Positions 4,335-29,608 of a stretch of 63,473 nt of DNA are shown here, piece by piece. Numbering within the stretch: position 1 is the stretch's first letter; each line of letters starts with the position of its first letter. The stretch spans positions 1-63,473 of the IMG/VR virus record IMGVR_UViG_3300049811_000819; one strand, written 5' to 3'. The translations under genes and the position numbers were made by a program. The stretch comes from a virus. Taxonomy: Duplodnaviria; Caudoviricetes. The notes under the pieces are model-generated. The model saw only the letters and a program-made list of their open reading frames with translations, was not told the origin of the DNA and did no database searches.

Positions 4335-4374
4335 TTACTTTTTCCTCCTATTAGAAAAAACTTGACTTTCTTAA

Positions 4375-4404: not shown

Positions 4405-4490
4405 TAAATTCTCAAAATAAATTTGTGGATCGCAGGGACATAGGATCGAGGTAACTGATGAGATTGGTAGAGGGTGTAATCGGTGTTAAG

Positions 4491-4737: not shown

Positions 4738-4753
4738 AGAGGGTATCTGAAAC

Positions 4754-4778
4754 AAAAAAATCCCGCCGATTTGGCGGG
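4754..4778 (-). terminator. Intrinsic terminator after the tail operon
   Basis: CCCGCC-aaatc-GGCGGG followed by ATTTTTTT on the minus strand. Confidence 0.8.
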
Positions 4779-4797
4779 CGCACTAGAAATGGAGGTG

Positions 4798-7362: not shown

Positions 7363-7393
7363 GTTTTAAGTAAGAATTCTAAAGTTTCTGTTA

Positions 7394-7804
7394 TTATTCT
7401 ACTCGATAGATAAAAACAAGCGTTCTTATGACCTCGGCAAGGTACGAACAAATTACGCCTTTTTCTGTGTCAGCATGAAGATATACCTCCTCTCCCGCAT
7501 AAATGCCAACGTGGGTTATTACACCCGCCCGTTTGAACACTAGCACATCGCCAATATCAGGTTTTCCGTCAACACGGGTTAGGTAGCGATCGAGAGATTT
7601 TACGAGAAAATCATTTCGGGGAATTCGTTCGTAATTTTCGAGGGCAAAGTCTGACGGGAGAAACCCTACATTCACTCCTACGCCAGCAAGAAATCCGACG
7701 CAATCACAACCGATTCCTTTTTTACTCTGGCCATGATGCCATGGTGTCCCAATCCACTCGATTGCCTCGGCGACGATTTTATCTCCCAACGCATCTACAG
7801 TCAT
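7394..7804 (-). CDS. NlpC/P60 tail-associated peptidase
   Basis: WIGTPWHH, GCDCVGF, HVGIY, YLHA. Confidence 0.92.
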   Translation of the reverse strand: MTVDALGDKIVAEAIEWIGTPWHHGQSKKGIGCDCVGFLAGVGVNVGFLPSDFALENYERIPRNDFLVKSLDRYLTRVDGKPDIGDVLVFKRAGVITHVGIYAGEEVYLHADTEKGVICSYLAEVIRTLVFIYRVE

Positions 7805-7964
7805 GTTCTCTTTCCTCCGATCTTGGGCGAAATCCCATCTCTACCCCGTTTCGGTAAGTAGTACAAAGCGATTCTTTTAGTTCTCGATCGCCCCGACACG
7901 ATGGGAGAATTTCCCACGCAATCGCCGAAGCAAGTATTGCTCCTAATACTACTATTTTTTTCAC
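7779..7964 (-). CDS. Small Cys-rich protein with signal peptide
   Basis: MKKIVVLGAILASAIA; the GTG start overlaps the tape measure TGA (GTGA). Confidence 0.5.
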   Translation of the reverse strand: MKKIVVLGAILASAIAWEILPSCRGDRELKESLCTTYRNGVEMGFRPRSEEREHDCRCVGR

Positions 7965-10900
7965 CCGAAAAATCTCCTTTTAGTTCGCTCATTTTGGGCG
8001 TTCTCACGCTCTTTTAGCTGAGTTAGAGAATATCCCATGTCATTCCGTGATTCTATCGTAATATTGCTCACATTGGTGATTGCAAGAGAACGATCAGATG
8101 AGGAACTATTTGAGTTCGTGATATTGTAGCCAGTTCCCCCTACAAAGCCGCCCGTCGCATAGTTTTTGATTGGGGTATTTTTATATTCTAGATAAGCTTT
8201 TGTCTCGTTCGGAGTAAGCACATACTCGTCTTCGTTGGCCACAATCAGCCGGGGGTTTCTCCCGCCGCTCATGGACCGTTCGCGTCGGAAAGCAGAAATC
8301 ATATTTTTCTCTATCGGGGCATCGGCTCCGATTTTTCCACCAGAACTAAAGAGGCTGAATCCTGTTCCCAGTGAAAAACCGGAAGCGGACGTGAATGGAG
8401 TGAAGGCGACGGACGATCCGAGTCCACCGAGGGAACCAGTGAATAGGCTTAATGCTCCTCCTAGTAGTCCGCCTCCCCCATTGCTAAACGGAACTGGGGA
8501 AGATGCGCCTCCGCTCCCTCCAAAGATTTGCATGAGTAGCTGATTGGCTGCCATTTCGCCAATCTTCTGCAAAAAGCTAGTCAGTACATTCAGCATTTGC
8601 TGTAGAGTATCCCGCCCCCCGGTGAATGCGGCTCGGAGTAAGTCGCCAAAAGCCCCAACTGCGGGATTGGCTTCAATAAATGCAGAAGCCAAATTAGCCT
8701 GTTGCATTTTGTCGAGAGCATCTGACATTTCAGATAACTGGGTAGGAGACAAGGCACCCTCTTGAGCTTGTCGCTTGAGTTCGAGGCGACGACGGGCAAA
8801 ATCTGCTTCTATACGAAGTTTTTGAGATTCTCCTGTACTAAACAGCGTTCCGAGCGGATTTATCCGGTTTCCCGCATCGATCCCGTCTGCAAGCAGGTTG
8901 TTGTAGCGTTCGAGGGCGGCTACTCGTTCATCCTCGATCATTCGCATAGCGGCCGCTTCACCCCGAATCTGTCCATAAGTGGCGAGTTGATTATCGAGAG
9001 CTTTATAGCCTTCAAGAATAGCCGTGTTTCGCTTGTTTTCGGTTTTGAGTGCTTTGAATGCGTCATCGTTGCCTGTATCCTGAAATAGCCGCGCCTGTGT
9101 TTCTTCCGAGTTTTTAGCAAAGTCTGAAGTAAGCTGTTCGAGCGATCGAATCTGGGATTGGATTGACTCTCTTTGTTTTTCGATCTCCCGACTTCCGTTA
9201 CGTCGGGCTTGTTCAATTTTCTCCGAAAACGTGAGATAGCCTTTAGAAGAACGCATTAAGTCGGTCGAGGTATCTCCCGTGTCTCTCAGTCCAATTTCGG
9301 CTTGAATTCGGCTTTCTTGCGTTTGTCGGATTAGTCCCGCAATCCGATCAAGATTTTCCCGTCTTGCTCGTTCGAGTTTAAGCAGGTTTTCTTCTTGTTG
9401 GTTTTGTAGAGCTTTCTCGCGGGTGATCCTGATTTGCGTATTGAGTTCTTGCGCCCGGTCGTAATCAAAAGTCGGAAGCGGAGCAAGCGGGATGTTTGCC
9501 TGTGGCTGCCCTGTTAACACACCAGAATATCTCTCGACATTGCCCGTCGTGTAGTTGGCTCTTTCGACCGGCGTAAGAGGCTGAAGATTCGGGTTGAGAA
9601 CTTCCTGTGCAAAGCCTTCCCAGTTTTTGTAAAGTCCCGATCTCATTAACAAGCGGTCAAACTCTTCTGACCCCGAAGTCTCTACTTGCTGAACTACCGA
9701 TGGATGGCGAATGTCGTCGGCGTTGACCGTTGATCGGTAGCGCATCGTTTTGGGGTCATAGGACGGGGAGGGATCGTATTTGTAAATCTGTCCATTGCCG
9801 TAGTCGATGTAGTCCCCGCGCTGTAATGTTCGAGGATTGTTCGGAGTTCCCTGTCTGTAATGTTCGGAGCTTTCGCTATTGTTCGGAGCTTCCCCAATCG
9901 CCGGGGCTATTTTCGGAACTTTCCCGCCAGCAATCTCTCCCGATTTAGCGAGAAGTTTTTTGGAGTTTTCCAGAATGCCCGCCCAGACTTCGTTTAAGGA
10001 CTTAAATGTTAGTTGTTGCCGTGATAGCTCACGGGCTATCTGAACTTGCTGGTTCCAGAAGTCCCGTAGCTGTTTTAAGCGATTCCGCTCGGCATCATAG
10101 ATTTGCTCTTGAATGTTCCGCAGTTGTCGAGCGAACTGGATTGACTGATCCCGAATGTCGAGCGGTCGTGTTCTCAGGCTATCAGCCTCGCCTTGAATTG
10201 AGGCCACTTCGTCCTGGTATTGCAGTATGAGGTCGTCTAATTGCTTCTGTAGCGAGTTCATGCCAGGCGTGCGCCCAGAAATGAGAGATACTCGCAAGCG
10301 TTGGTTCTCAAGGGTTCTCTGACTTGTTCGGAACTCGTTTTCCGCTTCGATGAGCGATCGCTGTAGTCCTCGGATCATATCTCCGTAGGACTCTCGGAAG
10401 CCTCTTATCTCACGGGCTGATTGAATCTGGTAATCCTCGATTGATACTCGGAGATCGACTACTTGTCTTTGCAGTCCAGTGTAATAATCCTCAAGGTCAA
10501 TTGTCTGGCTACGCAGGGATAACTTAGCCTGTTCAATCTGAAGTTGAATCCGAGCGATATTAGCTTCAATTTCTAGGGGATCACCTTTGAGTGTTCCGAC
10601 AAGCTTTGATTGTTCAAAGGCTAATTGTTTATAGAGTTTCGAGATTTCAATCAGCGTTTGGTCGCGGGCAAAAGTTTTGACCTGACTCGATACGGTTCTA
10701 GCAGTCAGCTTAATTTGCTTGTTTGTTGCCTCGATCTCGATCGCTGTGGTTGCGTAGAATTCAGCGAGGTCGTTTTGTTGATCTCTTAAGGTTAATCGTG
10801 TTCGAGCGATGTTCGCTTTAATTCGGGCAATATTCGAGCGAATTGGTAAAGGATCATCGACATTCGCCGCAAGTCGCTCTTGTTCTACTGCTAACTGTTT

Positions 10901-13900
10901 ATAAAGTTCTTCTAGAGATATTTGTGTTTCGGCAGACTGGAACGAGCGGAGTCTGCTAGTCGGGGTGGCGTTATAGAGTTTTTCTTGTTGTCCCGCAACC
11001 AGAACTTCGTTAGCTGATTGTTTTTCGGCTATCTGGCGACGTTTCCGCTCGTTAATAATCTCGCGGTTGATAGTCTGAATTTCTTTTTCTGTAGCAAGAA
11101 TATCCTGACGAGTTGTGGCGTAAGTTTGTGCCATTTCCAGAATATTTTTAAGAGCCGCATTCGATTCGAGATCGGAGTTTTCGGACATGACTCGCTCGAT
11201 TGCTTCCCGGGAAAGTAAATTCTTGTCAATTGCTTCGGAGAAACTACCGACACCGAGCTTTTTAAGATCGTCCCCAAAGTAGGTAGATAGTGTTTTGTCA
11301 GCCGCTTCTGTGATTCGAGTATTTAGTTTCGCCCCAGTTTCCGATGCAGTTGTTTGAAGGGACGCAATTTTTTCTTTTGCTGTCTGTAACGACTCCTCAC
11401 GCACCTTAACATTAAACTCATACTCGTTAAGCTGTCCCGACGCAAATCCTTTTTCGTTACCGATTTGTCGGGTTAGGGACGCTCTTGCGTTAGCAAAAAT
11501 ACGATTGTCTTGAGCATTGAGCGATCGATTAAATGCGTACTGAAGTTTTTTGTACTGTTTTTCCTGATCCCTGAGAACATTAAGGTAGTTCTGTTGTTCG
11601 GTTTTAAGTCCAGCAATTAGTTCTTTCAATCGAGCCGATTCTGATGCGTAATTTTTAAGAGTGTTTCCGCTTTTTCGATACTCTTCGTCTAGTTGTGCAA
11701 GCGCATTTTCGGCTACCTGTAAATCCGCAGTAATACGAGAACCAACAGAGCCAAAGCGTTTATCGATCGCTTCCTGCTCCGTTTTCATTAACACTTGTTC
11801 TTGCTCATTTAAGCGTACTATCGATGCGGAATCCCCTTTACCTGAAGCAACTGCCCGTTCCGCTCGAATTAATGCAATCTGGTTCCGAACACCTTGCAGT
11901 GAATCGATAAACTTATCGATCCCGCTCGTATCCGAGAGTACAGTCTGATAACCTTTTAAGTTTGTTTCTAGCTCTCCTGCGCCTTCTCGAATGTTTTTAA
12001 GATTTTCTTGCCGATCACGAACGGCATTGTTTCTTTTAAAAGTGTAAACAGTTCCGACTGTTAAAACATTAAGAACTTTTTCGGTTCCCGATAAATTCAT
12101 GTCAGGGAAAAGATTATTCCAGAGATTTTTGTCTGGTTTAATTTTCCCTAAATCCTCTAAAACTTTTCTCGATTCCTTGAGAGTCTCAAGCGAATTTTTA
12201 AGTTCTGCATTCCCATTCTCGAAAATATCATAAAATGTTGTCAGCGCAAAGATTGTCGAGGCGGGAACAATCATCGCTCCGAGTGTTGCTTTTATTACTC
12301 CGCCCGCTACTTTTGCTGTAGCCGTGAGAGTTTGCATCTGGGTTGTTGTTTGCCCTGCTGTAACTCCCATTGCAAACAATGAGGCATTGTAAGAAGATAC
12401 AAGCATTGCTCCCAGTCGAGTAGCGGCAGAAAATTGCAATACTGCTTTTCCGAGTAGCCCGATTGCGCTTATCGCCGCAGATGCGCCTACTGTTACAACT
12501 AAACTGAGGTTGTCGCTTAGTCCCTTCAGGAGAGCGTTGAGTAGCTGTAGCGCAGGGTAAGCCACAACGCCAAGTTTTTCCCCGGCTCCCATCGATAGCT
12601 GTTCAACGTTGTTCTGGTAGCGATTGATTTCTGCTTGGAGAGTTTTGCTTGCCGCTCCGAGTCCTCCTGCGCTCATCCTTTCGTATTCGGACGATAATCG
12701 AGGGATCACATCATCAGTGAGTAATTGTCCTGCGCTGGCTTGTCGGTAGAATTCGGCAGTCGTAAGTCCCGACGCACGAGCGGCTACGATCAGTGCGTCG
12801 TAAAGTCCTCCCGACTCGGTTAATTGTTGAGTAAACTCCTCGACTGACAATACTGACCGAGATGCCATCTGATTAATCGCTCGGAATGTCTCGGCTTGTT
12901 GTTGTGGGCTAGTTTGCCGTACTGCAAGAGCAGACTGAAAACCTTGATAGATGTTGTCGCTTTGAGCTTGCAGTGGCGAATTCATTGTTACGATACGGAA
13001 CTGGGCGTACTGCTTGGCTGATTCTTTAAACGAGATACCGAGTTCGTTAGCCCGATCCTGTAGCCCGTCAATCGACGCATTAACGTCGCTAACGCCAGCG
13101 ACATTAAGGTTGATCTTGATTTGCTCTAATTCAGTAAAGGCGAGAAGCGAACTAGAAACTGCTTGTTGGAATTGAAATGGTAAGTTCTGAATTCCAAAGA
13201 ATAAAGGCTGTAATAGGAATTCGGCGGTTTTAAATAGAGCAAGTCCTCCAATAACTGCCAGCGATGCTTTACGAAGATTGAACATCCCCCCCGTAGCCGC
13301 ATCGAGTTCTTTGTCGAGGGTTCTGAGGGCTTTGCCGCCGACCGATAAGAAATTGATAAACCCATCCGCTTGAGCAATTGCAGCTTTTAGTCCACTTACG
13401 AAACTAGAGGTAAATCCGCTTGAAACGCCCGCTTCTTCAAAGCTGTCAAGAGTTTTGAAGATGTTATCTCTTTTTTGATTCCAGTCGCCAAGAATTTCTT
13501 CCCTTGTCGATTTTTGGGGATTCGATGTTTTTATAGTTTGATTTAAAAGCGATTCTCTTTTTTGTAGGATTGCTCTAGCTTTTATCAAGTCTTCTAGGTA
13601 GCGTTGTGGCGAATCTTTTAGCCCGCGAGACATCTCTGTATTCGTAGCCATCCGCTCCCCGTCGTTCGGGTCAGGAAAACCAGACGCAACACGAGGACGG
13701 CGGGGGGGCTGATTGCCACCTCCTCCCCCAGAAGCTAATCGAGCTTGCTCGGCACGTTGTTGCATCACGTCTGTTGCGTTTCTGGCTTGTTGAGCTAATC
13801 GAGCTTGCTCGGCACGTTGTTGCATCACGAGCGATGCCGCTTTTTGCATTGCTTGAATTTCGGATGCTAATGTTTTAGCTACCTTGCTTTTTGTCGTCTC

Positions 13901-16900
13901 AATTATGTTAATTGCATTTTCGATTCGTCTAGAAATTCTTTTCGCTTGCTTTTCAGTTTCAATAGCTTCTTTTTCGGGCTGATCAAGATTTTGTTTTTTA
14001 ACTGCTTGTTTAGGTTTTATTTTTTCTTCAATAACACTAAACTCAGCATCTATAATACGAGATGGATTAGCATTATTTGACTGTTTTGACTGTCTTGGTT
14101 GTGGTATATTTTCAACAACTGGAATAGCCGATAAAGGTTTTTGTTGTTGATTTGCTTTTTTGAGTTTAGATGCAACTTTTCCAGTTATTCCAAGCAAACT
14201 TAGTAAAGAAGCAACAGTTAACCCATAATTGCCTATAAATTTTAACAAATCGGTAGTTAATGCTTTCTCGGCAGATTCAACCTTTTTAGAAACATTTTTA
14301 ACTGGTAATATTTTGCTAGTTATTGATTGAGGACTGATAGACAATTCTTTATCAACAATAGAGTCAGAGACAATACTTGCTAAAAGATTTTTTTCTTTTT
14401 TAACAGGAGTAGGAGTAGTTACACTAGGAGGTTTAGATAGCTTCGCTTGTTTGTTTTCTATTTGAGGACGTTCAAAAAATCTTAATTGGTAAGGGGTAGA
14501 TTTGCCTGTCCCACCTAACGATTGCGGTAAAATGCGACTTAATGATTTACTTGGTACTGTTAACCTTGCCATATTCCCATGATCGGGAAGCATAACAGCA
14601 GTAAATCCCATAGAGCGAGCATATTTTTCTAACTGTTGTGGAGTCATATCTTTTTGACCTTCCATGGCAGTTAAATTACCTTCTTTTGTTTTACCAAAAA
14701 ATACTCTAGGACGAGGAACTTGGTAAGCTAACTGCTGTTTTACCGAGCTATGATAGCCTCCTTTGTAATTAGCTGGTCGTTGAACTTCGTCGTTGTATAA
14801 AACATGAAGACCGCCAATAAAAGTATCGTAATCGCTTAATCTATTCGATTTAGCTCCGCCATAGCCAAATTTTAAATTACCTTGTTTATTGATGCCAATA
14901 AAACCCCTTTCTTCTGCGGCGGCACGATTACGAGATAACTGCAAAACTTGTCCTCTTTGAACAACGTCTGCAATCATGTTTACTTTCTGATTTTTATTTT
15001 GCAAGAAAAATCTATCAAACATCGGGCCGGAACTATAAGCAATTGCCTGTTTATCCCGAAAAGCTTTTTTATCTACATCAACCTGCTTAACAACCTCTGC
15101 CCCAGTTGTAGCGGGGTTCATCGTGACCCCCTTAAAGGATTCTGTTTGGATAAATTGCTGTGCGTTGACAGGCATCCCACTAGAAGCTATGGCAAGAGTA
15201 GCCATAAGTCCCTTAACTGCCGGATTGGATAATCCTTTTTGTAATTCCTTGATAACTTTAGTGGTTAATTCTTTTACCTTAGTAGTTAATCTGCTTTCTT
15301 GTCTTTCAACGCCTATTCCTATTCCTTCAATTAGGTTTTTACCCGCTTTCTCTCCTTTTCGTGATGGCGATTGGTTTCCTAATCCCTTGTTAGTTGCGTT
15401 TACAATATCGATAGCATTTTGGTAAGCGATTTTTTCTGCTTTGTTATCTTTTAATCCTTTGGCTAAACCTTCGTTAAGGTTTTTGCCTGCCTCAATACCT
15501 TTTTTCCCGATCTCAGGGAGAAAAGTAGATTTCAATCCACCTGCTTCTGATGTTCGCTCCATCAATCCACCCATTTCTGGTGGAAGTGCTTTAAATCCGT
15601 ACCGTTCCCACAGTTTTTTTGATCGTGCGTCAGTTGGTAGAGTTACAAGGGGCGTATTGCCAACATGGGCAAATAGCTCTTTCATCCATCGGTTTAATAC
15701 CTCTCGGACTTTAGCTCGCGTTTCTGGATTAACAGGGGGAGTAAATGTGTTATTTACCATCAACGACGAAAGCATAAAGCGCCCGTCTTTTAGACCATGA
15801 CCATAAAGTCTAACTTTATGGTCATCGATAGTTTCTTCTCTAACGAAATCGCTAGTCTTGTTAGATAAGGGTTTTTCAGAAAGACTCACTGAGGGATTTT
15901 TCGATAGCTTTTTTGTTAATAATTTTTGTGTATTTTCAACAACGTCGCCACCTTCCCACTTGACCATTTTTGCTTCGGTTGCAAGGTCTTTTAACCCAGA
16001 GATTGGATCGGCAAAGCGAGATTGGATAATTTTTTCAATATCACCTAAAAACAGACCCACTTCAAAAGCTTTGACAATTTCTTCGGCTAACTCTTGAAAA
16101 TCGGATGATGCAAGCTCTTTTTCAATGCCTATCTCTACACCTTTGATTAAGTTTCTTCCTGCTTTTTCCCCTTTCCAAGATGGCGATCTATTACCTAATT
16201 CATTATTTAACCCATCAATAATATTTTTGGCATTTTTTCTAGCGATTTTGCCAGCTTTGTTATCTTTTAAGCCTTTAGTTAGACCTTCATTGAGGTTTTC
16301 AGCTGCTTTAATGCCCTCGTCGGTTAGATCGACTACGGTGAATTCAACATCAATTATTTGAGCTTTATCAAATAATTTTTTAACCTCATCGATTAAATGG
16401 CCAAGCATTCCCCCTAGTGATTGATTTATTTTCCCTCCCTTTAATTGAGGGTCTTCTATAAATCTTTTTATTTCAGCTGCCGATGCGACTGCAGATTTAT
16501 AAGCTTCTTTGATTTTGGCTAAACTTTTGGTATCATCTGGCATATTTAATGCCTCAGTTAGCAAATTTTTAGCCTGTTGGTATTGACCTGACTTTATCGT
16601 TTTTACATAATCTTTGGGAACCTTGACTGGTTCAAAGGGGGCTAGTTCTATTGGGTTAGGGAGTTTTGATGAAGCTAATCTTTGATAACTCTGTTTAAAC
16701 GTTTTAATAAGAGCGTCGGTTCTTCCTTGTAATGCTTTCTGGTCGTTGGCTCCTAGCCTCTGGGGAATGCTACCGGTGGCCGCTCCTAGAAGTTTTTTGA
16801 CCCCTTCCCCTGCCATTAACGACGATCCAGCAACCGCTCCCCCTTGCGCTAAGACACTGATAGTGCCGTTAGTTAGTTCGGTTACGAGGTTCATTACTGC

Positions 16901-19900
16901 TTCTGTTAGCTGTTGACCTACTCCGAACGGTAAGCCACTAAAAGCTTGTGTCATTTGCATTGACACTGCTTGAAGCATTTCCTGTCCACCAGCGCTCATC
17001 GCCCCTGACAGAATAGTTCGCATTTCGTTGATAACTGCGGCATCTAATCCGAGGGGGAGAGCGTGAAGGGCGGCCGCTCCTACTGCGGCAGTTCCCCCTA
17101 GCTGTAATGCTTTTTTACCTAAGCCCATCCCTGGTATAGCCATGACAGGGCGCTCGATCGCTTTCAATACCGTGAAAACAGTTTGACCGAATTTGATAAT
17201 ATCTAGAGAGGTATCCTTGAGAGCGTTTCTAAGTATTCTGCTCGCTTCTTTTACCTCTCTAATCAATACCTGATTTAATAGGTCTGAAATACTCTCATTA
17301 CCCGACAAAAGCTGTATTTCACCGCTACTATCAGGAGTCGATAATCTAGTAGTTAAACTGCTTTTTAAGCCTGCTTGGGTTTTGATAGCTATACTTTCTA
17401 AGACTTTTTCTAGCGGAGTATTTCCTCTGTCTGTTTCGCTAATACCAAAACCTTCAGGAGCGGGCGGCAAGAGCTTTTGTGAGGATGCTTTGTTAACTGC
17501 ATTTACGAAAGACTGCATTAATTCGGCATTAGATTTAGCCCACGGGTCGTTAGGTGTGCTATTTTGCCACGGATCGATTAAACGACTAGCATATTTGGCT
17601 AGAATAGCTTTTTCTATTCGGGATAGACTAGAAACTATTTGTTTTGTGGCACTGTGAATAGTTTTTTCAATTAAGTTTTCTTTTCCTGTTAAATCTTTTT
17701 GTTTGTTAACTACATCTGATACCTCTTGAGGCTTTATTTGTTGATTCTTGTTTAAAAGTGCCGCAAACTCGGAGATCGCTTTTTCGAGCCTATCAATGCT
17801 AATGATAGCGACTTCTCTGTTCTGGGAGTCTTTGCTTAATTGCCCCGATCTGCTACTTTTAGTTGGGGGACTAACAATGTCGCCTCCTACATTAAGGGTA
17901 TTTTGTTGTCTTCTCCGCAAAAAACGCGGATCATTAACCATTAATGAAGTGTCAGCATACCCCTCATCAAAAGCTTTTTGAAATATTTCCGTGGTTTTTT
18001 TATCGTATCCTTGAGTGCTTCGTCCTTTTGCCCCTTGAACATCTCTATTTATCTGTTCTTGGCGAGTTGTCTGATCTTTTGATAGCTTTGTTGCATTAGC
18101 AAAATCAATAGCTTTTAGTTCGTTTTCTGGACTAATTAAAACATTTTCTGTATTTAGATCAAAATGAGCATATCCAGATTCGTGTATATTTTTGAGTAAG
18201 CGTGCATAACGTTTTACATAATTTGTAAAAGCTTTAATATTTTCTTGGGTACTTAAATCGGCTTTTCGTAAAATATCGTTTAAAGAGCCAACTGTTTTAA
18301 TATATTCCTGAATAAAATACTCACCTTTTCTTGCGGTAATCGGGCGTGGTGCAAGTCCTTGTTTTGCCATTGCTAACTGAGCCTGGAACTCTTTTGGGGT
18401 TCCAAGTTTTCCTTGATTTAGTTCCGTGACTGGTGTTTTAATCGCTAAATTTCCAAGTCGATACACGGCTCCCGTAAAACCTTGTCCTACTTTTTCCGCT
18501 TTAAGTACATCAAGGTTTTCAGGGAGTATTTTTTGGGATTTCTGTAATGCTCGATTAACATTAATTAAGTCAAATGGCTGATACTGAATTGACTTGATAT
18601 TCTGTGATTCAGATGTTAGGGATTGCGATACATTTTCTAGCGCACTCTCGATTAATCCTGTATTTGTTCTTAAAGACGCTTCAAATCCAAGAATAGCGTT
18701 TGAGAGGTTAAAGAAAAAGTCGGTAATATTTTCTACGCTTTCGCCCATTGTGGCGATCTCTTTAATTACCTTGTTTTTCCCTATAAAAGTCGGAACTGAT
18801 GCGTTTGTGTCAACGTATTTATTAGCCGCATTTATCATTTCGCCAATACGCGAGAATGGGCTAGTTTTTAAGAGTTGAAGGTATTCTGATTGCGCTCCCT
18901 TGTCTCCCCCTGCGATTCTTTTTTGCAATTCGGAAACACGTCTTAAAAAGCCTTGATAAATCTGTGCTTCTTTCCGACGTATTTCAATCAAAGCCTGAAC
19001 GACTTTTTTGGCCGCCTTGTCTGCTTCCGTGTTCATGGGCATTTTGTCAACCCACTTTAATAAATCGGGCAGGGACTGGTCTTTGACTAGCGGCAATCCT
19101 TTTTGATTAGTTGTTTGCGAGAGTTTGTAGAGAATATCCCCAAATCGAGGATTAATGTTTTTACGAATATTGCTAGGCGCATCTTCTCTACGAGAAAACA
19201 TTTCTCCGTATGTTGCTGAGTCTGGAGCAGCATTGTCTGGCTCTGTAACGTAGTGATAAGGTTTTGCTCCAAACTGTTTTTCGTACCCTGCTTCAGCTAG
19301 GGTATCAATAGCATTGATAAAGTTAGTCCATTCTGTCTCAAATTCTTCTCCCATCGTGCGGAAAATATTTTTCCGTGTCTCCATCCAAAAGCGTAAAAGC
19401 GAGCCGAAGTTGCTTGGCTTAAGATCGATAGTATCGGTTCCTGAATTAACAAGTTTCTCGATTTCTTCTAGGTTCGAGAGAAGCGGGTCAAGGTAAGAAA
19501 AAGGAACACTTGCTCCCGTAAGAATTTCTGCAAGAGTATTCTGGTAGGCGGAAATTGTGCTTTGTAGTTCTTTTTGTTCTCCCCCAGATGTTTTGCTTGG
19601 ATTACCAAGAACTGGGATCGTTTTTAAAAACTCTGTCCGTTCAGCTATTTCTTGATCAACGGACGTAATCAACGCAAGTAATTCATCTAGTTTTTTAGTA
19701 TCGTTGACTGATAACCTTGATCGGTCAACACCTGACACAGATTGATCTAATTTTTCTTTGTATTTTTTTAATTCTGTAATTCGCTTAACAATTGGAGCAT
19801 AAAGATGCTTGAGCGACTCTCTGAGACTTTTATTAAATTGTTTTTGAGATGTAGCAAGATTGCTTACATAAAGTCCAATCTTGTGATCTTCCCCTGTTCT

Positions 19901-21712
19901 GTTAAGAGTTAATTGCTGTTTTGACGGAAAGAAAAGACGAGAAGGTAAAGCAACATCAGCAGTTTTGTAAATATCTTCGGCTGCTTTTTTCTTTTTGGCA
20001 TCTTTGCTGTTTATATCGGGAATAAACGACTTTCCAAACATCGTGATCCCAACCTTATCGTAGTTGCCCATTGCAGCAACATATTTAAGCGGGCTTTTCG
20101 GATCGACTACGGAAGTTAAACCTGCATTTGGTGTGCCTATCCCTAATCCATATTTGACATTTTTTAGCATTTCCCTAAGAGCGGGTGACATCTTCATTAG
20201 TTGCTGTAGGATAGCGACTGCCTCCTCAACAACGTAGCCACCACCAGAACCCCCGACTAACGCAATCTCCTTGTCGGGGTTTCCCATTGCAACATTTAAC
20301 GCTTTTGCTGCTAACGTAATTGCGTCTTTGTCAAATCCCTCAAAATTAGTTTGAGCTACTCGATCAATTGGCTGAACTGTTTTAAAAGCTGTTAAAATTC
20401 CTTGATAATCCGCTTCAGACATGAACTTTTGCAAAAGTTCTTTATTTTTCTCGACAATTGGTAGCAATTGCTCTCGAATAAATTGACTTGGACTATTTTT
20501 TAGTTCTTCTAGGCTATTTGATAGGACGTTCGGAACGGCAAGGACGGCTGTTTCTGGAAAAACCCCTTGTACTTGAGCAGCAAGGTCGTAGGTACTTTTT
20601 ACCTGCGGCTGTCCAGGGCGGGATTCACTTGGTTGAACACCACCGGTTACTAAAGTAATAGATTTTCTAGATTTAATAAAATCCTGCTCTTTTTGCGAGA
20701 GTTGTAAGATTTTCGCTATTTCTTCGGCTGCTCTTGCTGATTCCGAGAGTTGTATTCGTTTGCGAATTCTTAACGGTTGTACTGCAACTCGTGCGGCCGC
20801 TCCCAGTGATCGCACGAGATTTTCCTCGGCCACCATTGCAATTTTCGGAAAAGCCTCTTTTAGTTTTTCCCCAATCGGGTAAGCGGGTTCTGGTTCTGTT
20901 GAATTTTTGGGACGTTTTTTGACGTTTGCACGACTAAACTGTTGCGCCTCAACGTAAAGGTCTTCTAATTTTCGATAAGTCTCTGGGTTAAAAAGTGTAT
21001 CAGTTATTGCTCTGTAATTGATACGAAGCAACTGTTTTGCCCCTTTTAGTCCCCTAGGGAAGCCCAGTAAATCCTTAAAAGCAGCGTCAAGAAGATTGTT
21101 AAACTGCTTAACATTGCGGCGAATAGTTTTACCTACTGCCTCGCCTTGATCCTCGAAGTCAATTCCGACTGTTCTATTAAGTCCTTTGCCCGCTTTTAGC
21201 CCGCTATAAAGCCCTGCCCCCGTAAAGAATCCCTCGACTGCATTGCCCACAGTGAGATTAAATGCCTTTTGAAAAATATTTCCGCGAGGGTTAGAGTTTC
21301 GGACGGTTACAGACAGTCGCTCGATCGCTTTTTCTACTTTGTCCTGATAGCCTGAAAAACGATGCTCGACTACAAGCCGAGACGGAACCTTTATATCGAC
21401 ACTGACGCGCTTTAATTCCCGCAATTCCCGATTAAGCCTAACAAGTTCCCGATCCTCGACATAGACACGAACGGGGTTGCGCCGGTAATGAGCAACGGTT
21501 TTGTCGAGGTCATCTCGTTTGAGCTTCAAGTGATCGTTCAGTTGGTACAACCGGCGATCATCTACTTCTACCCCGATTTTTACCGTCACCCCAGAGCGAG
21601 CGGCCATGCGCTGTAGGGAGACAAGTTGACCTTTTGCCCGTGCGATACCAATATCGTACTGGTTAGTATTTAAGCCCAGTCCAATTTCTAGCGTGCCTAG
21701 CGAAACAGTCAT
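7961..21712 (-). CDS. Giant multidomain tape measure protein (4583 aa)
   Basis: Follows the tail chaperones; TMP-type N-terminus (LGTLEIGLGLN); tape-measure domain near 12550-13140 (FRAINQMASRSVLSVEEFTQQL); coiled coils; C-terminal FSSGG/EYVL/YATGGFV motifs. Confidence 0.92.
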   Translation of the reverse strand: MTVSLGTLEIGLGLNTNQYDIGIARAKGQLVSLQRMAARSGVTVKIGVEVDDRRLYQLNDHLKLKRDDLDKTVAHYRRNPVRVYVEDRELVRLNRELRELKRVSVDIKVPSRLVVEHRFSGYQDKVEKAIERLSVTVRNSNPRGNIFQKAFNLTVGNAVEGFFTGAGLYSGLKAGKGLNRTVGIDFEDQGEAVGKTIRRNVKQFNNLLDAAFKDLLGFPRGLKGAKQLLRINYRAITDTLFNPETYRKLEDLYVEAQQFSRANVKKRPKNSTEPEPAYPIGEKLKEAFPKIAMVAEENLVRSLGAAARVAVQPLRIRKRIQLSESARAAEEIAKILQLSQKEQDFIKSRKSITLVTGGVQPSESRPGQPQVKSTYDLAAQVQGVFPETAVLAVPNVLSNSLEELKNSPSQFIREQLLPIVEKNKELLQKFMSEADYQGILTAFKTVQPIDRVAQTNFEGFDKDAITLAAKALNVAMGNPDKEIALVGGSGGGYVVEEAVAILQQLMKMSPALREMLKNVKYGLGIGTPNAGLTSVVDPKSPLKYVAAMGNYDKVGITMFGKSFIPDINSKDAKKKKAAEDIYKTADVALPSRLFFPSKQQLTLNRTGEDHKIGLYVSNLATSQKQFNKSLRESLKHLYAPIVKRITELKKYKEKLDQSVSGVDRSRLSVNDTKKLDELLALITSVDQEIAERTEFLKTIPVLGNPSKTSGGEQKELQSTISAYQNTLAEILTGASVPFSYLDPLLSNLEEIEKLVNSGTDTIDLKPSNFGSLLRFWMETRKNIFRTMGEEFETEWTNFINAIDTLAEAGYEKQFGAKPYHYVTEPDNAAPDSATYGEMFSRREDAPSNIRKNINPRFGDILYKLSQTTNQKGLPLVKDQSLPDLLKWVDKMPMNTEADKAAKKVVQALIEIRRKEAQIYQGFLRRVSELQKRIAGGDKGAQSEYLQLLKTSPFSRIGEMINAANKYVDTNASVPTFIGKNKVIKEIATMGESVENITDFFFNLSNAILGFEASLRTNTGLIESALENVSQSLTSESQNIKSIQYQPFDLINVNRALQKSQKILPENLDVLKAEKVGQGFTGAVYRLGNLAIKTPVTELNQGKLGTPKEFQAQLAMAKQGLAPRPITARKGEYFIQEYIKTVGSLNDILRKADLSTQENIKAFTNYVKRYARLLKNIHESGYAHFDLNTENVLISPENELKAIDFANATKLSKDQTTRQEQINRDVQGAKGRSTQGYDKKTTEIFQKAFDEGYADTSLMVNDPRFLRRRQQNTLNVGGDIVSPPTKSSRSGQLSKDSQNREVAIISIDRLEKAISEFAALLNKNQQIKPQEVSDVVNKQKDLTGKENLIEKTIHSATKQIVSSLSRIEKAILAKYASRLIDPWQNSTPNDPWAKSNAELMQSFVNAVNKASSQKLLPPAPEGFGISETDRGNTPLEKVLESIAIKTQAGLKSSLTTRLSTPDSSGEIQLLSGNESISDLLNQVLIREVKEASRILRNALKDTSLDIIKFGQTVFTVLKAIERPVMAIPGMGLGKKALQLGGTAAVGAAALHALPLGLDAAVINEMRTILSGAMSAGGQEMLQAVSMQMTQAFSGLPFGVGQQLTEAVMNLVTELTNGTISVLAQGGAVAGSSLMAGEGVKKLLGAATGSIPQRLGANDQKALQGRTDALIKTFKQSYQRLASSKLPNPIELAPFEPVKVPKDYVKTIKSGQYQQAKNLLTEALNMPDDTKSLAKIKEAYKSAVASAAEIKRFIEDPQLKGGKINQSLGGMLGHLIDEVKKLFDKAQIIDVEFTVVDLTDEGIKAAENLNEGLTKGLKDNKAGKIARKNAKNIIDGLNNELGNRSPSWKGEKAGRNLIKGVEIGIEKELASSDFQELAEEIVKAFEVGLFLGDIEKIIQSRFADPISGLKDLATEAKMVKWEGGDVVENTQKLLTKKLSKNPSVSLSEKPLSNKTSDFVREETIDDHKVRLYGHGLKDGRFMLSSLMVNNTFTPPVNPETRAKVREVLNRWMKELFAHVGNTPLVTLPTDARSKKLWERYGFKALPPEMGGLMERTSEAGGLKSTFLPEIGKKGIEAGKNLNEGLAKGLKDNKAEKIAYQNAIDIVNATNKGLGNQSPSRKGEKAGKNLIEGIGIGVERQESRLTTKVKELTTKVIKELQKGLSNPAVKGLMATLAIASSGMPVNAQQFIQTESFKGVTMNPATTGAEVVKQVDVDKKAFRDKQAIAYSSGPMFDRFFLQNKNQKVNMIADVVQRGQVLQLSRNRAAAEERGFIGINKQGNLKFGYGGAKSNRLSDYDTFIGGLHVLYNDEVQRPANYKGGYHSSVKQQLAYQVPRPRVFFGKTKEGNLTAMEGQKDMTPQQLEKYARSMGFTAVMLPDHGNMARLTVPSKSLSRILPQSLGGTGKSTPYQLRFFERPQIENKQAKLSKPPSVTTPTPVKKEKNLLASIVSDSIVDKELSISPQSITSKILPVKNVSKKVESAEKALTTDLLKFIGNYGLTVASLLSLLGITGKVASKLKKANQQQKPLSAIPVVENIPQPRQSKQSNNANPSRIIDAEFSVIEEKIKPKQAVKKQNLDQPEKEAIETEKQAKRISRRIENAINIIETTKSKVAKTLASEIQAMQKAASLVMQQRAEQARLAQQARNATDVMQQRAEQARLASGGGGGNQPPRRPRVASGFPDPNDGERMATNTEMSRGLKDSPQRYLEDLIKARAILQKRESLLNQTIKTSNPQKSTREEILGDWNQKRDNIFKTLDSFEEAGVSSGFTSSFVSGLKAAIAQADGFINFLSVGGKALRTLDKELDAATGGMFNLRKASLAVIGGLALFKTAEFLLQPLFFGIQNLPFQFQQAVSSSLLAFTELEQIKINLNVAGVSDVNASIDGLQDRANELGISFKESAKQYAQFRIVTMNSPLQAQSDNIYQGFQSALAVRQTSPQQQAETFRAINQMASRSVLSVEEFTQQLTESGGLYDALIVAARASGLTTAEFYRQASAGQLLTDDVIPRLSSEYERMSAGGLGAASKTLQAEINRYQNNVEQLSMGAGEKLGVVAYPALQLLNALLKGLSDNLSLVVTVGASAAISAIGLLGKAVLQFSAATRLGAMLVSSYNASLFAMGVTAGQTTTQMQTLTATAKVAGGVIKATLGAMIVPASTIFALTTFYDIFENGNAELKNSLETLKESRKVLEDLGKIKPDKNLWNNLFPDMNLSGTEKVLNVLTVGTVYTFKRNNAVRDRQENLKNIREGAGELETNLKGYQTVLSDTSGIDKFIDSLQGVRNQIALIRAERAVASGKGDSASIVRLNEQEQVLMKTEQEAIDKRFGSVGSRITADLQVAENALAQLDEEYRKSGNTLKNYASESARLKELIAGLKTEQQNYLNVLRDQEKQYKKLQYAFNRSLNAQDNRIFANARASLTRQIGNEKGFASGQLNEYEFNVKVREESLQTAKEKIASLQTTASETGAKLNTRITEAADKTLSTYFGDDLKKLGVGSFSEAIDKNLLSREAIERVMSENSDLESNAALKNILEMAQTYATTRQDILATEKEIQTINREIINERKRRQIAEKQSANEVLVAGQQEKLYNATPTSRLRSFQSAETQISLEELYKQLAVEQERLAANVDDPLPIRSNIARIKANIARTRLTLRDQQNDLAEFYATTAIEIEATNKQIKLTARTVSSQVKTFARDQTLIEISKLYKQLAFEQSKLVGTLKGDPLEIEANIARIQLQIEQAKLSLRSQTIDLEDYYTGLQRQVVDLRVSIEDYQIQSAREIRGFRESYGDMIRGLQRSLIEAENEFRTSQRTLENQRLRVSLISGRTPGMNSLQKQLDDLILQYQDEVASIQGEADSLRTRPLDIRDQSIQFARQLRNIQEQIYDAERNRLKQLRDFWNQQVQIARELSRQQLTFKSLNEVWAGILENSKKLLAKSGEIAGGKVPKIAPAIGEAPNNSESSEHYRQGTPNNPRTLQRGDYIDYGNGQIYKYDPSPSYDPKTMRYRSTVNADDIRHPSVVQQVETSGSEEFDRLLMRSGLYKNWEGFAQEVLNPNLQPLTPVERANYTTGNVERYSGVLTGQPQANIPLAPLPTFDYDRAQELNTQIRITREKALQNQQEENLLKLERARRENLDRIAGLIRQTQESRIQAEIGLRDTGDTSTDLMRSSKGYLTFSEKIEQARRNGSREIEKQRESIQSQIRSLEQLTSDFAKNSEETQARLFQDTGNDDAFKALKTENKRNTAILEGYKALDNQLATYGQIRGEAAAMRMIEDERVAALERYNNLLADGIDAGNRINPLGTLFSTGESQKLRIEADFARRRLELKRQAQEGALSPTQLSEMSDALDKMQQANLASAFIEANPAVGAFGDLLRAAFTGGRDTLQQMLNVLTSFLQKIGEMAANQLLMQIFGGSGGASSPVPFSNGGGGLLGGALSLFTGSLGGLGSSVAFTPFTSASGFSLGTGFSLFSSGGKIGADAPIEKNMISAFRRERSMSGGRNPRLIVANEDEYVLTPNETKAYLEYKNTPIKNYATGGFVGGTGYNITNSNSSSSDRSLAITNVSNITIESRNDMGYSLTQLKERENAQNERTKRRFFG

Positions 21713-21713: not shown

Positions 21714-22166
21714 TTACTTGTCTCCTAACTTTATCAATTCGTCGTATAGTCCACAGTCCACAATTATTTGTAGGGCGTAAACAGGGACTTCCCCAGCTTT
21801 TAATGCCTCTACTAATATCTCGGCTGTTTCGAGATCAAAGAAATATTCTTTATCTTTTTCCAGTCGGTACGGCAGAAAATCCCCTGGCGTGAGATCATTT
21901 ATTTTTCCGCTGTCTTTGGCTTGGGCTTTCATGTAGGAGTGAACCATTGCGGCTATTTGTGAAACGGTTCCCGATAGCGAGTTTATTTCTTCTGCCTTGA
22001 CCCGTTGCACTCCTGACCATTTTTTGAGGATCATCCAGTCAGGCCATTCGTGCCACTCCTCGGCTGGTAGTCCCCAAGCAAACCACTGAAAATAGATTTT
22101 TTCCCAGTCGATTGGGTTATTTATTGCCTCTAGACGAGCGACAATTGCCTCATCTATTCGTTTTTT
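21714..22166 (-). CDS. Tail assembly chaperone, frameshifted extension (gpT-like)
   Basis: The -1 frame is open from the slippery site into ORF 21714..22034. Confidence 0.8.
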   Translation of the reverse strand, partial: KKRIDEAIVARLEAINNPIDWEKIYFQWFAWGLPAEEWHEWPDWMILKKWSGVQRVKAEEINSLSGTVSQIAAMVHSYMKAQAKDSGKINDLTPGDFLPYRLEKDKEYFFDLETAEILVEALKAGEVPVYALQIIVDCGLYDELIKLGDK

Positions 22167-22915
22167 TCGGCTTCCTCATCTTCGGGTTTTTCGGGTTCTT
22201 TTTCGGATGTTTTGGGCGGCTCTGTCCACTGACTAATATCGACATAGACATAATCGTTATACAGGCGAACTAGCATTGATGGATGTAAAGCCTCGATGTC
22301 TTCACGGGTAAATTCTGCGCTTGCTTTTTTTGTCCGGCGCGGGCTGTTCAAGAACAATCGAATCAATTCCCGATTGTAATTATCGAATGTGTCTATTCTT
22401 TCTTGATAAAGCTTATTTAGTTCATCAAGGTAAGGAGTGATTAAATCAGCCGTTTCTTTGCTGAATTCTCGCCGACGCTTACGAGAGTTTACAATAGATT
22501 CTTGAGCTATTTTTGCTGACTCTATTTTTTTCTCAACGCTTTCTAACTCAACGGTTTCCGCCGCATTGACGATTATTTCCTCGACTTTTTCCATCAGCGA
22601 GTTATCGCTAATCACAATCGACTCGATTTCCCCAACGGACAGCCCCGTTTTTTGGCTAACTGCCTTAAGCTGTTCAAGATAAGCCTTGTCAACTTTTTCC
22701 CGTTTTTCTGAGGCATCGGGGATAGCTTTATTTTCCGAGGGATGAATCCCGTATCGTTTGTAAAACTCGATTCCAATTTCTTCATCTTTTTCTGATGCGA
22801 TCAAATCGAGTTTTTCTAACAATTCTTGGTCGTCAATGTATTGAACCCATTCTTTCCGCAAGGGGAAAAAGAAGGTTTCGTTAGTTTTGAGTTTGCCTAT
22901 TATACTTAATGCCAT
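22154..22915 (-). CDS. Tail assembly chaperone (gpG-like)
   Basis: Lies between the major tail protein and the tape measure gene; ends in a slippery heptamer. Confidence 0.78.
   Translation of the reverse strand: MALSIIGKLKTNETFFFPLRKEWVQYIDDQELLEKLDLIASEKDEEIGIEFYKRYGIHPSENKAIPDASEKREKVDKAYLEQLKAVSQKTGLSVGEIESIVISDNSLMEKVEEIIVNAAETVELESVEKKIESAKIAQESIVNSRKRRREFSKETADLITPYLDELNKLYQERIDTFDNYNRELIRLFLNSPRRTKKASAEFTREDIEALHPSMLVRLYNDYVYVDISQWTEPPKTSEKEPEKPEDEEAEKNE
22160..22166 (-). other. Programmed -1 ribosomal frameshift site A AAA AAC
   Basis: GAA AAA AAC GAA TAG at the end of the chaperone gene; X XXY YYZ heptamer in the correct frame. Confidence 0.82.
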
Positions 22916-28585: not shown

Positions 28586-29605
28586 CTATAGCTGATACCT
28601 CTGTACTAAGTCATCCCGTACTCCGATTAAGATCACTCGCTCCCGGGATTGAGGCACACCATAGTATTTAGCATTTAGGACTTGCCCCCTGACTTTGTAG
28701 CCACAGGATCGCAATTCGCTATATATATCGAGAGCGACTCGCTTCATGTGTCCTCGGATCATACCGGGTACATTCTCCGCCACGAACGCTTTTGGTTTGA
28801 ATCCTTGCAGAAAACGACAATACTCCCTAAATAGCTGATTGCGATCATCATGTAGGTTGCGTTTGCCTGCCACAGAAAATCCCTGACAGGGCGGGGACCC
28901 TGTAAGTAAATCGAGATCGCCGAGACTGATTCCCGATAAAGCGATCGCTTTTTCTAGGGAAAGTTTTGCTATATCCCCGTGATAGAGTGGTACCTCAGGG
29001 AAGTTTGCCCGGTAGGTTGTGGCAGATTGATCATTCCATTCCACAGCTAGGCGCTCATCGAACCCTGCTAGTTTTAATCCGAGAGATGAACCGCCACACC
29101 CCGAAAAAGTATCAATCACAGTCGGGCGATCGGTGTTTTCAAGGAATGGGGAATTTTTCAAGTTTTCAGCGATCGCTTTCATTAATAGGGGCGGGACTGA
29201 ATTCCCAATCCTCTCGATCACATTTTTAAATCCGAGTGATTCAGGAAACACGAAATCATCGGGGAAACTTCCGAGTCTTTTTAATTCCACCTCATTAATA
29301 AATCGCTCACCATTGGGGTGGATTATGCCGGTTGTTCCCCAATGAGAAGATTTAATAATAGTGCAGGATTCTCTGTTCCAAGATAGTCGGATTAGACTCA
29401 TAAAACCGCCCGTTTTGCCGTTGTTATACTTAGCGATTATTGGTTTTATCTTGTCACTAGCAAAATCCCCCGGCGTTATCTCTAGGGCGACTTTTTGGAC
29501 ATATTCACGCATGGCAATCGGACAAGGTTCGTTCTCGTCTAATCCCTTAAAGGCTTCTCGTACTGTGATCGGTTTTGTTTGCGGTTTTGGGTGAAAGTTC
29601 CACAT
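28586..29605 (-). CDS. Orphan C5-cytosine DNA methyltransferase, circularly permuted
   Basis: Order is TRD, IX (ELKRLGSFPD), X (IGNSVPP), I (FSGCGG), IV (SPPCQGFS), VI (ENV), VIII (PQSRER). Confidence 0.92.
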   Translation of the reverse strand: MWNFHPKPQTKPITVREAFKGLDENEPCPIAMREYVQKVALEITPGDFASDKIKPIIAKYNNGKTGGFMSLIRLSWNRESCTIIKSSHWGTTGIIHPNGERFINEVELKRLGSFPDDFVFPESLGFKNVIERIGNSVPPLLMKAIAENLKNSPFLENTDRPTVIDTFSGCGGSSLGLKLAGFDERLAVEWNDQSATTYRANFPEVPLYHGDIAKLSLEKAIALSGISLGDLDLLTGSPPCQGFSVAGKRNLHDDRNQLFREYCRFLQGFKPKAFVAENVPGMIRGHMKRVALDIYSELRSCGYKVRGQVLNAKYYGVPQSRERVILIGVRDDLVQRYQL

Positions 29606-29608
29606 AAA

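Follow-up and report, generated by a model that had tools for sequence, protein, structure and literature searches.

A minimal kinase-like domain inside the giant tape measure protein of a probable cyanobacterial prophage

We analyzed a 63,473-base provirus record from IMG/VR (IMGVR_UViG_3300049811_000819, rated complete; this whole stretch is called the window below) and found that its giant tape measure protein, 4,583 amino acids (aa) long, contains a minimal protein-kinase-like domain. We are nearly certain that this is a real, selected, and catalytically intact kinase-fold domain in a real tape measure protein. Because the domain is intact and conserved within a tape measure, an ATP-using enzyme may be delivered to the host along with the DNA of this phage. 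Based on our analysis, the protein is best read as a tape-measure version of the “polyvalent proteins” of Iyer and Aravind. That the domain would be an ejected kinase acting in the cytoplasm, carried as cargo in the N-terminal extension of such a polyvalent tape measure protein, is a proposal to which we give slightly less than an even chance.

A first-pass annotation of this DNA had reported six hallmark kinase motifs in the right order within 17960..18520, an interval that corresponds to aa 1065 to 1251 of the 4,583-aa open reading frame (ORF). A motif search of the translation bore this out, with each of the six motifs present once and all in a single frame on the minus strand, between aa 1075 and 1205 (18098..18490). 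A plus-strand reading of 17960..18520 was ruled out, as its translation is riddled with stops; the feature lies on the minus strand. The gene, the domain, and its putative active-site elements are located as follows.

7961..21712, minus strand: giant tape measure protein ORF (P0001), 4,583 aa in one uninterrupted frame, with tape measure matches
17945..18577, minus strand: minimal protein-kinase-like domain, aa 1046 to 1256, supported by Pfam Pkinase, an AlphaFold2 model, and PRPK/Bud32 structural matches
18461..18490, minus strand: Gly-rich loop VGQGFTGAVY (G-x-G-x-x-G), aa 1075 to 1084, recognized by motif
18437..18439, minus strand: K1092 of A-I-K, the putative ATP-anchoring Lys, placed by profile alignment to twitchin
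18389..18391, minus strand: E1108 of PKEFQAQ, the helix-C Glu, within the model helix formed by segment residues 76 to 87
18137..18166, minus strand: catalytic loop HFDLNTENVL, aa 1183 to 1192, including H1183, D1185, and N1190
18098..18106, minus strand: D-F-A, the DFG equivalent, aa 1203 to 1205, with D1203 (IDF motif), the putative metal-binding Asp

The kinase-family profile search that the first-pass annotation had proposed placed Pfam Pkinase (PF00069) above its 31.7-bit cut-off, both for the whole protein (35.3 bits, E 1.1e-8) and for a cut segment spanning aa 1031 to 1300 (42 bits, E 9.9e-11), well outside the range of chance. The same segment scored above the Pfam cut-offs for RIO1 (31.6 bits; cut-off 22), PK_Tyr_Ser-Thr (30.7 bits), and Kdo (24.3 bits; cut-off 21.3). 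Pkinase scores higher than RIO1 over these residues, which leaves it ambiguous to which family of the clan the domain belongs. The C-terminal half of the domain matched Pfam OspG_kinase at 19.9 bits (E 8e-4), and because this is below the 27-bit cut-off, we do not consider the domain a member of that family. In PHROG, the match was to phrog_2361, “serine-threonine kinase” (E 3.5e-9). The NCBIfam matches, to a Kdo kinase, to LanKC/LanL kinase domains, and to Bud32, were all sub-threshold: the top match, Kdo kinase PRK01723, reached 36.1 bits (E 3.3e-9) against a cut-off of 142, and the Bud32 models TIGR03724 and NF011460 reached 26.2 bits against 125 and 25.3 bits against 199, respectively.

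A sequence search of the PDB aligned the stretch from the Gly loop to the DFG position with Lck, Src, and PAK, and the alignment ended there. On sequence grounds, Hanks-type protein kinases are the nearest relatives of the core. The single-sequence alignment with Lck offsets the Lys by four residues; a profile of the tape measure kinases aligned the Lys of L-A-I-K with the Lys of twitchin F-A-A-K, which we take to be the ATP-anchoring Lys of twitchin.

We modeled aa 1031 to 1300 (270 residues; segment residue n is aa n+1030) with AlphaFold2 from a 24-sequence alignment. The mean per-residue confidence score (pLDDT) was 82.2 and the predicted template modeling score (pTM) was 0.75. The pLDDT was at least 90 at 159 of the 270 residues, with block means of 83 to 98 over segment residues 41 to 220 (aa 1071 to 1250), and was mostly below 50 over residues 228 to 270 (aa 1258 to 1300). 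The model folds as a two-lobed kinase, the fold on which the first-pass annotation had made its reading depend. It begins with an N-terminal helix and an N-lobe of five strands and one helix, followed by long helices D and E and by the catalytic and DFG hairpins. Two residue assignments from the first-pass annotation also found their place in this model, as the proposed helix-C-like Glu, E1108, falls in the sole N-lobe helix and the proposed hinge, IQEYI (aa 1134 to 1138), in the last N-lobe strand. After the DFG-equivalent Asp there are only two helices and then disorder, and thus the substrate-binding C-lobe of Hanks kinases is missing. The domain sequence contains no APE motif, which would mark an activation segment. 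As modeled, aa ~1046 to 1256 is a minimal kinase with the full nucleotide and phosphotransfer apparatus and without an activation segment or substrate-binding C-lobe.

Foldseek identified human PRPK (7szc_A) as the top match in the PDB (E 7e-10). After re-alignment with VIA-align, all 1000 chains had a Z score of at least 5; PRPK 7szc_A reached Z 18.0 (191 of 229 residues aligned; root-mean-square deviation, 3.8), yeast Bud32 17.4, Rio1 14.7, WaaP 13.8, and Hanks kinases ~12. A separate search of 48,161 representatives placed Bud32 4ww5_A first (Z 17.2), with APH(2'') at 14.9 and Rio1 at 14.6. Rio2 scored 14.3, a choline-kinase family protein 13.5 to 13.9, and the RNA kinase Ark1 11.6. Overall, the matches to Bud32/PRPK had Z scores of 17.2 to 18.0 over 185 to 191 aligned residues. 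Most of the structural matches listed are kinase-fold proteins by title, and we presume that the few remaining ones are as well. Among predicted viral structures, the top match was a “RIO-like putative serine/threonine kinase” of Synechococcus phage S-CBWM1 (E 1.3e-10). The first-pass annotation had suggested a Ser/Thr or RIO/APH-like kinase, and the Pfam RIO1 match, the model, and the structural Z scores agree with the second of these in pointing to a small RIO/Bud32/APH-like domain, not a full Hanks kinase.

In common with Bud32/PRPK, the domain is a minimal two-lobed kinase of ~210 residues that lacks an activation segment and has a short helical C-lobe. Its catalytic loop (here D-L-x-T-x-N) also resembles what we take to be the Bud32 motif. 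It differs from Bud32/PRPK in identity (16 to 21%), in profile scores far below the cut-offs, in its classical G-x-G-x-x-G Gly loop, in the absence of a Kae1/Cgi121 context, and in being embedded in a phage structural protein. With RIO kinases it shares the RIO1 match (31.6 bits over 22) and the structural similarity to Rio1 (Z 14.6 to 14.7) and Rio2 (14.3); it differs in that RIO1 scores lower than Pkinase on the same residues, in that the structural Z is below that of Bud32, and in that there is no ribosome-maturation context.

These resemblances bear on an alternative that we consider fairly unlikely, in which the domain would be an ATPase or autophosphorylating switch serving the tape measure itself, in the style of Bud32 and RIO. 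Such a switch might, for example, control chaperone release in tail assembly, or a membrane-insertion or DNA-entry step once the N terminus meets cytoplasmic ATP. The top structural matches (PRPK/Bud32 at Z 17 to 18, RIO at Z 14 to 15) and the lack of a substrate-binding lobe are consistent with this idea, as is the position of the domain in an N-terminal block common to close relatives, with variable cassettes further downstream. However, the NCBIfam Bud32 models reach at most ~26 bits against cut-offs of at least 125, and we found no Kae1-like or ribosomal partner context. Furthermore, four related giant tape measure proteins (P0116 to P0119) have no kinase, so a tape measure can fulfill its basic role without the domain.

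We weighed a second possibility, a kinase of small molecules, lipids, sugars, or nucleic acids (of the APH, choline kinase, WaaP-KdoK, or RNA-kinase type) whose substrate would be a nucleotide signal, a compound resembling an antibiotic, or a precursor of the envelope, and regard it as quite improbable. The top NCBIfam match is a Kdo kinase (36 bits), Pfam Kdo is above its cut-off, the APH(2''), WaaP, choline-kinase family, and Ark1 structures are among the matches (Z 14.9, 13.8, 13.5 to 13.9, and 11.6, respectively), and the neighboring domains of these proteins are envelope directed. Yet the NCBIfam Kdo kinase model has a cut-off of 142 bits, the core sequence lies closest to that of Hanks-type protein kinases, and APH and choline kinases form their pocket with a larger helical C-lobe, whereas only two helices are present here.

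Sequence conservation indicated that the active site is maintained. Across a 24-sequence alignment of the domain, in which every sequence (24/24) matches Pkinase, residues H1183, D1185, N1190, and D1203 (segment H153, D155, N160, and D173) are invariant, and E1108 (segment E78) and H1177 are at least 90% conserved. The Gly-loop residues G46, G48, and G51 (segment numbering) are invariant in an alignment of six tape measure kinases, and the Lys motif, by inspection, reads AIK, VLK, VVK, or AYK in relatives. We calculated the ratio of nonsynonymous to synonymous substitution rates (dN/dS) by section against a related locus, L006. This ratio was 0.082 for aa 1075 to 1205 (dS 0.62) and 0.10 for aa 1 to 1030; it was 0.29 for the linker at aa 1261 to 1695 and ranged from 0.35 to 0.78 across aa 1201 to 1400.

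The fusion of kinase and tape measure recurs. A search of the domain against 1.84 billion representatives gave 102 matches at E ≤0.001, the best three being two giant tape measure proteins, P0002 and P0003, and a fragment of such a protein, P0004. P0002 (3,494 aa; E 2.3e-15) carries TMP_3 and many tape measure PHROGs and shares aa 5 to 620 and 717 to 1252 of the window protein at 27 to 34% identity. P0003 (5,767 aa), encoded at 247..17559 of a 122-kb viral contig (locus L008) and named “tape measure domain-containing protein” at NCBI, matches the tape measure core of P0002. Its two kinase-like domains, whose catalytic loops lie near aa 2052 and aa 3232, each have H-x-D…N and an Asp at the DFG position. 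P0004 is a cysteine-free fragment in which the C terminus of a kinase is followed by the tape measure core. Two further proteins, P0104 (5,481 aa, 82% identity) and P0105 (4,821 aa, 60% identity; catalytic loop H-L-D-Y-N-T-E-N), keep the fusion. The window protein matches P0104 over aa 1 to 1695 (79%) and P0105 over aa 1 to 1866 (55%), showing a conserved N-terminal block that holds the kinase.

All motifs are intact, within one long open frame, in five viral contigs at 83 to 84% identity, and a genome contig titled Crinalium sp. MAG encodes a P0002-type protein in a 5,657-aa open frame. When genome contigs were scanned with the single domain, none of 106 pattern matches was confirmed; an alignment-based rescan gave one locus (L007). 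The viral rescan gave 15 loci, including five close relatives and L008; in three others (L012, L013, and L014) the match lies in an ORF of 351 to 1,111 aa, and six of the 15, four of them on contigs named GVMAG, fell outside the frame check. A metagenome scan produced at least 599 pattern matches, of which 83 were confirmed and 80 kept. L020 (E 6e-19) was the only tape-measure type among the metagenome matches listed, and the others listed (E 4e-9 or weaker) look like ordinary kinases. In total, we observed three lineages with this architecture among the collections searched.

Conservation and recurrence together bear on whether the domain is a degenerate or structural remnant (a pseudokinase), or a product of chance or misassembly. 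In favor of a remnant, D-F-A replaces D-F-G, N replaces K in the catalytic loop H-F-D-L-N-T-E-N, and the C-lobe is missing. However, all residues for ATP and metal binding and for phosphotransfer are present and invariant, the dN/dS is 0.08, the Pfam match has an E value of 1e-10, and the same fusion occurs in independent contigs and in lineages ~30% identical to one another. On this sequence evidence the fusion is no accident, and we consider the remnant or artifact explanation largely refuted and very improbable.

The first-pass annotation had placed the domain inside a tape measure protein, and this identification held, as the carrier is a genuine tape measure protein with TMP_3 above cut-off, a frameshift pair upstream, and tail genes downstream.

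12596..13132, minus strand: TMP_3 (PF20155) core, aa 2861 to 3039 (54.1 bits against a cut-off of 41, on a cut segment)
11078..14026, minus strand: wider tape measure match, aa 2563 to 3545 (phrog_2335, “tail length tape measure protein,” E 2.1e-16)
22154..22915, minus strand: probable tail assembly chaperone (G-like), 253 aa, the ORF directly upstream of the tape measure gene, its 3' end overlapped by the -1 frame
21714..22175, minus strand: T-like -1 extension, open from stop to stop and ending 2 bases ahead of the tape measure start codon, by frame arithmetic
22160..22166, minus strand: candidate slippery heptamer A_AAA_AAC in the zero frame, read from the sequence inside the 22-base overlap of the two upstream ORFs
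7394..7804, minus strand: NlpC/P60 minor tail protein, encoded immediately downstream of the tape measure (PF00877, E 5.6e-10; phrog_329, “minor tail protein”)
4798..7362, minus strand: tail or host-specificity protein (Rcc01698_C and Phage-tail_3; phrog_4271, “tail protein,” E 6.6e-86)

Heptamers of the A_AAA_AAC type drive G/GT frameshifting upstream of tape measure genes, the classical chaperone arrangement. The NCBIfam tape measure model TIGR02675 scored 19.4 bits, slightly under its 21.35-bit cut-off. A tblastn search with aa 2680 to 3100 matched 122 phage records. Of the 12 records listed, all but one carry a tape measure protein annotation; the exception, a copy of BcepGomr, has a gene label only. 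Pfam searches of 15 cut segments of the giant protein found nothing but TMP_3 beyond weak noise, and no peptidase domain was detected by Pfam in the whole protein or in the cut segments. No PDB match below E 0.1 was found by phmmer for aa 1866 to 2064, 340 to 700, or 2150 to 2400. For aa 1866 to 2064, an ESM Atlas search gave scores of ≤0.86, which are leads at best.

Several related giant tape measure proteins, found via the N-terminal region, carry other enzyme domains: Lipase_3 in P0116 and P0117, SLT in P0117, M23 and a phage tail lysozyme in P0118, a DPBB lytic transglycosylase in P0119, and Beta-lactamase2 in P0105. P0116 to P0119 have no kinase domain by Pfam. Given these other enzyme domains and the kinase-free P0116 to P0119, we describe the giant proteins as “polyvalent,” with the kinase as an optional module. 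The window protein itself has one further candidate module.

19853..20665, minus strand: lipase-like region, aa ~350 to 620, with a G-G-S-G-G nucleophile-elbow motif and with S489, D552, and H610 invariant in 4/4 sequences

Its aa 449 to 557 align with the part of P0116 that Pfam assigns to Lipase_3. For aa 330 to 640, AlphaFold2 gave a model too low in confidence (mean pLDDT, 53) to confirm the fold, and for this reason we treat the lipase-like module only as a lead.

Further along the protein, a repeat of ~90 residues, with the pattern …NLNEGL.KGLKDNKA.KIA…LGN.SPS.KGEKAG.NLI…, is present in two minus-strand copies, at 16115..16375 (aa 1780 to 1866) and 15251..15523 (aa 2064 to 2154), that bracket a segment varying between relatives. 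The repeat was recognized by the matching of both copies to the same P0104 segments and by reading both stretches; a self-BLAST for an internal repeat gave no output. P0104 has at least three copies, which bracket other inserts, and aa 2162 to 2685 of the window protein are mostly without counterpart in P0104 or P0105. From its sequence, the repeat-bracketed region looks like a cassette-exchange scaffold.

The giant proteins are nearly free of cysteine, with 0 in 4,583 residues of the window protein, 0 in 5,481 of P0104, 0 in 4,821 of P0105, 0 in 5,767 of P0003, and 4 in 3,494 of P0002. In the 48 other window ORFs, 174 of 13,563 residues are cysteine (1.28%), and at this frequency the chance of finding none in 4,583 is ~2e-26. 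We infer that the near-absence of cysteine is a sign of unfolded passage through the tail and the oxidizing periplasm, and it is the one indirect clue to delivery of the domain.

The mechanism that we propose has five steps, the first two of them either demonstrated or well supported. The gene is a genuine tape measure gene, whose product would be made late and incorporated in the tail, and the kinase domain within it is under strong purifying selection, with its predicted ATP-binding and phosphotransfer residues all intact. The remaining three steps are ones that we infer. Inside the virion, the tail lumen would contain the cysteine-free chain in an unfolded or loosely folded state. Upon infection, the tape measure would be expelled before the DNA and its hydrophobic segments would insert in the inner membrane; the N-terminal extension would exit last, beside the DNA end, enter the cytoplasm, and fold. 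With host ATP, the domain would then phosphorylate itself or a target that is either of host origin or a co-injected phage product, ahead of phage gene expression. In the most specific form of this proposal, the tape measure would be an injection vehicle for a cytoplasmic signaling enzyme, with the unfolded kinase arriving just before the DNA and phosphorylating host targets within seconds; likely targets would be defense, translation, or transcription proteins. We hold this form tentatively, with the balance leaning somewhat against it.

Another view of timing and place is that the kinase works in the producer cell late in infection, or is cleaved from a precursor before tail assembly. The adjoining linker is of low model confidence (aa 1258 to 1300) and fast evolving and could be a processing site, and ATP is surely on hand in the producer cell. 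Tape measure trimming is known from lambda, where gpH is proteolytically processed. We nevertheless judge this view unlikely, as no peptidase domain was detected in the protein, and the kinase region is as free of cysteine as the rest, a feature more in keeping with export than with an existence confined to the cytoplasm. In addition, tape measure proteins are present in few copies per tail, and fusing a late enzyme to a low-copy structural protein has no obvious benefit.

Several observations weigh against an ejected protein kinase. The modeled domain lacks both an activation segment and a peptide-binding lobe, and its Pkinase match spans only profile positions 70 to 156 of 263. Its closest structural relatives, Bud32/PRPK and RIO, act chiefly as ATPases on partner complexes, and APH-type small-molecule kinases come next at Z 14.9. 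The fold by itself does not say “protein kinase,” and fold alone does not separate this reading from its rivals. All the other enzyme domains seen in these giant proteins act on the envelope, making an ATP-dependent cytoplasmic domain the exception, and P0105 as a whole protein scores 26.4 bits with Pkinase, under the cut-off. The proposal also assumes that the N-terminal 2,500 aa are present in the mature tail. The chief physical objection is one of space: the lumen of a siphophage tail is ~4 nm, and three folded kinase domains would not fit in it; the model therefore needs unfolded storage and later refolding. Finally, the architecture is rare. Of 401 sampled genomes of the seed genome's class, with at most 6 candidates scored per genome, one matched at E ≤1e-15, and this was the seed itself. 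Among 50,697 phage records, only two, both of S-CBWM1, matched, and did so weakly and to a stand-alone kinase (27.7% identity over 51% of the query).

The closest precedent that we found for an ejected multidomain protein with a reduced kinase is the polyvalent group, and our proposal of entry into the host and protein phosphorylation argues by analogy with this group and with the T7 kinase. The main text of Iyer et al. 2017 (PMC5512222) describes polyvalent proteins of phages and conjugative elements as multienzyme proteins proposed to be injected with DNA, some of whose kinases lack the C-terminal subdomain and keep the active site; it also offers the T7 kinase as a precedent for a phage enzyme that phosphorylates host proteins early. 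T7 gp0.7 and the stand-alone phrog_2361 kinases differ from the present case in being separately expressed early products and not virion parts. Shared with the polyvalent kinases, as that text describes them, are a very large multidomain (pro)phage protein encoded among virion genes, a kinase that retains its active site but no C-terminal subdomain, and other effector-type domains alongside.

The differences from the polyvalent kinases are also clear. Their clade is described as having an insert between the conserved His and Asp (PMC5512222). No such insert is present here, where the residues read H-F-D in the window protein, H-L-D in P0105, H-N-D in P0002, and H-G-D or H-T-D in P0003. The picture is mixed for two further residues conserved in the polyvalent clade as described in PMC5512222, a Glu ahead of strand 2 and a Gln in the last N-lobe strand: the Gln is found in the window lineage (F-I-Q-E-Y) and not in P0002 (L-L-M-D-F). 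The kinases described there come from Verrucomicrobia-Chlamydia and Bacteroidetes, whereas the host here is probably cyanobacterial. Their carriers are described as capsid packaged (MuF and portal), and the phrase “tape measure” occurs 0 times in the main text of PMC5512222.

Other delivery systems share single aspects of this arrangement. Tape measures with envelope-degrading domains, classically T5 pb2 and that of mycobacteriophage TM4, likewise carry an enzyme domain in the tape measure that is expelled at infection. Those domains are cofactor free and work in the periplasm or cell wall, whereas a kinase needs ATP and must therefore act in a cytoplasm. OspG and NleH, which are delivered by type III secretion, are similarly stripped-down kinases handed over by an injection machine and differ in the delivery machine and in the target kingdom. 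In the abstract of PMC13277306 (2026), Sle1-type tape-measure-related modular effectors are described for contractile injection systems of Actinobacteria. As presented there, they share a tape-measure-derived scaffold, exchangeable domains, and ejection from a tail-like machine, and they differ in belonging to a nonphage nanomachine of Actinobacteria; that abstract mentions no kinase module. On account of these effectors, the carrier principle has a precedent. No title or abstract listed by our literature search, which covered journals outside subscription, described a tape measure protein with an internal kinase, and in passages of PMC8876498 and PMC7824862, kinase and tape measure are separate genes or topics. 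Database domain lists already pair PF00069 with PF20155 for these proteins.

The source is a probable cyanobacterial prophage. The octamer GCGATCGC, a palindrome that we take to be a cyanobacterial hallmark, has 13 sites in the window (e.g., at 3917, 10354, and 55747) against 0.87 expected, and none of 100 shuffles reached 13. This enrichment, the title of the Crinalium record, and a Cyanothece homologue together point to a cyanobacterial host. Elsewhere in the provirus, we noted several further genes. A distance of ~32 kb separates the 781-aa hub fusion among them from the remaining tail genes, the tape measure gene included.

53653..55998, minus strand: 781-aa ORF fusing DUF2460, the phiJL001 Gp84 N-terminal hub domain, and BR0599 (distal tail/hub parts of the gene transfer agent type)
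48773..49618, minus strand: EAL domain protein, a putative cyclic di-GMP phosphodiesterase (PF00563, E 6.8e-38)
33313..34212 (plus strand), 42559..43311 (minus strand), and 52270..53025 (minus strand): three Rha-domain paralogues
34289..35053 (plus strand), 36212..36988 (plus strand), and 43403..44125 (minus strand): three Bro-N-domain paralogues
59134..60993, minus strand: helicase (ResIII, DEAD, and Helicase_C) with a weak DnaJ-like stretch at aa 196 to 238 (21.4 bits, E 2.8e-4, below the 27.8-bit cut-off)
28586..30214, minus strand: C-5 cytosine DNA methylase beside a ParB-like protein, divergent from the terminase region

The architecture is rare, with three lineages seen, and is thus of limited general importance unless other cargo proves to follow the same principle. 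The known enzyme domains of tape measures attack the envelope, and a conserved, catalytically complete ATP-dependent domain in a tape measure implies cytoplasmic entry and activity of some portion of the protein. In that event, the domain would provide a handle on the fate and topology of the tape measure after ejection, and on how temperate siphophages act on the host before the first phage gene is expressed. With ~210 residues, no cysteine, and obvious catalytic-dead controls, the kinase offers a compact case. Siphophage tails would then be injectors of effectors, comparable to type III or type VI secretion, and “polyvalent protein” delivery would reach beyond the capsid into the tail lumen and probably into a further host phylum, the cyanobacteria.

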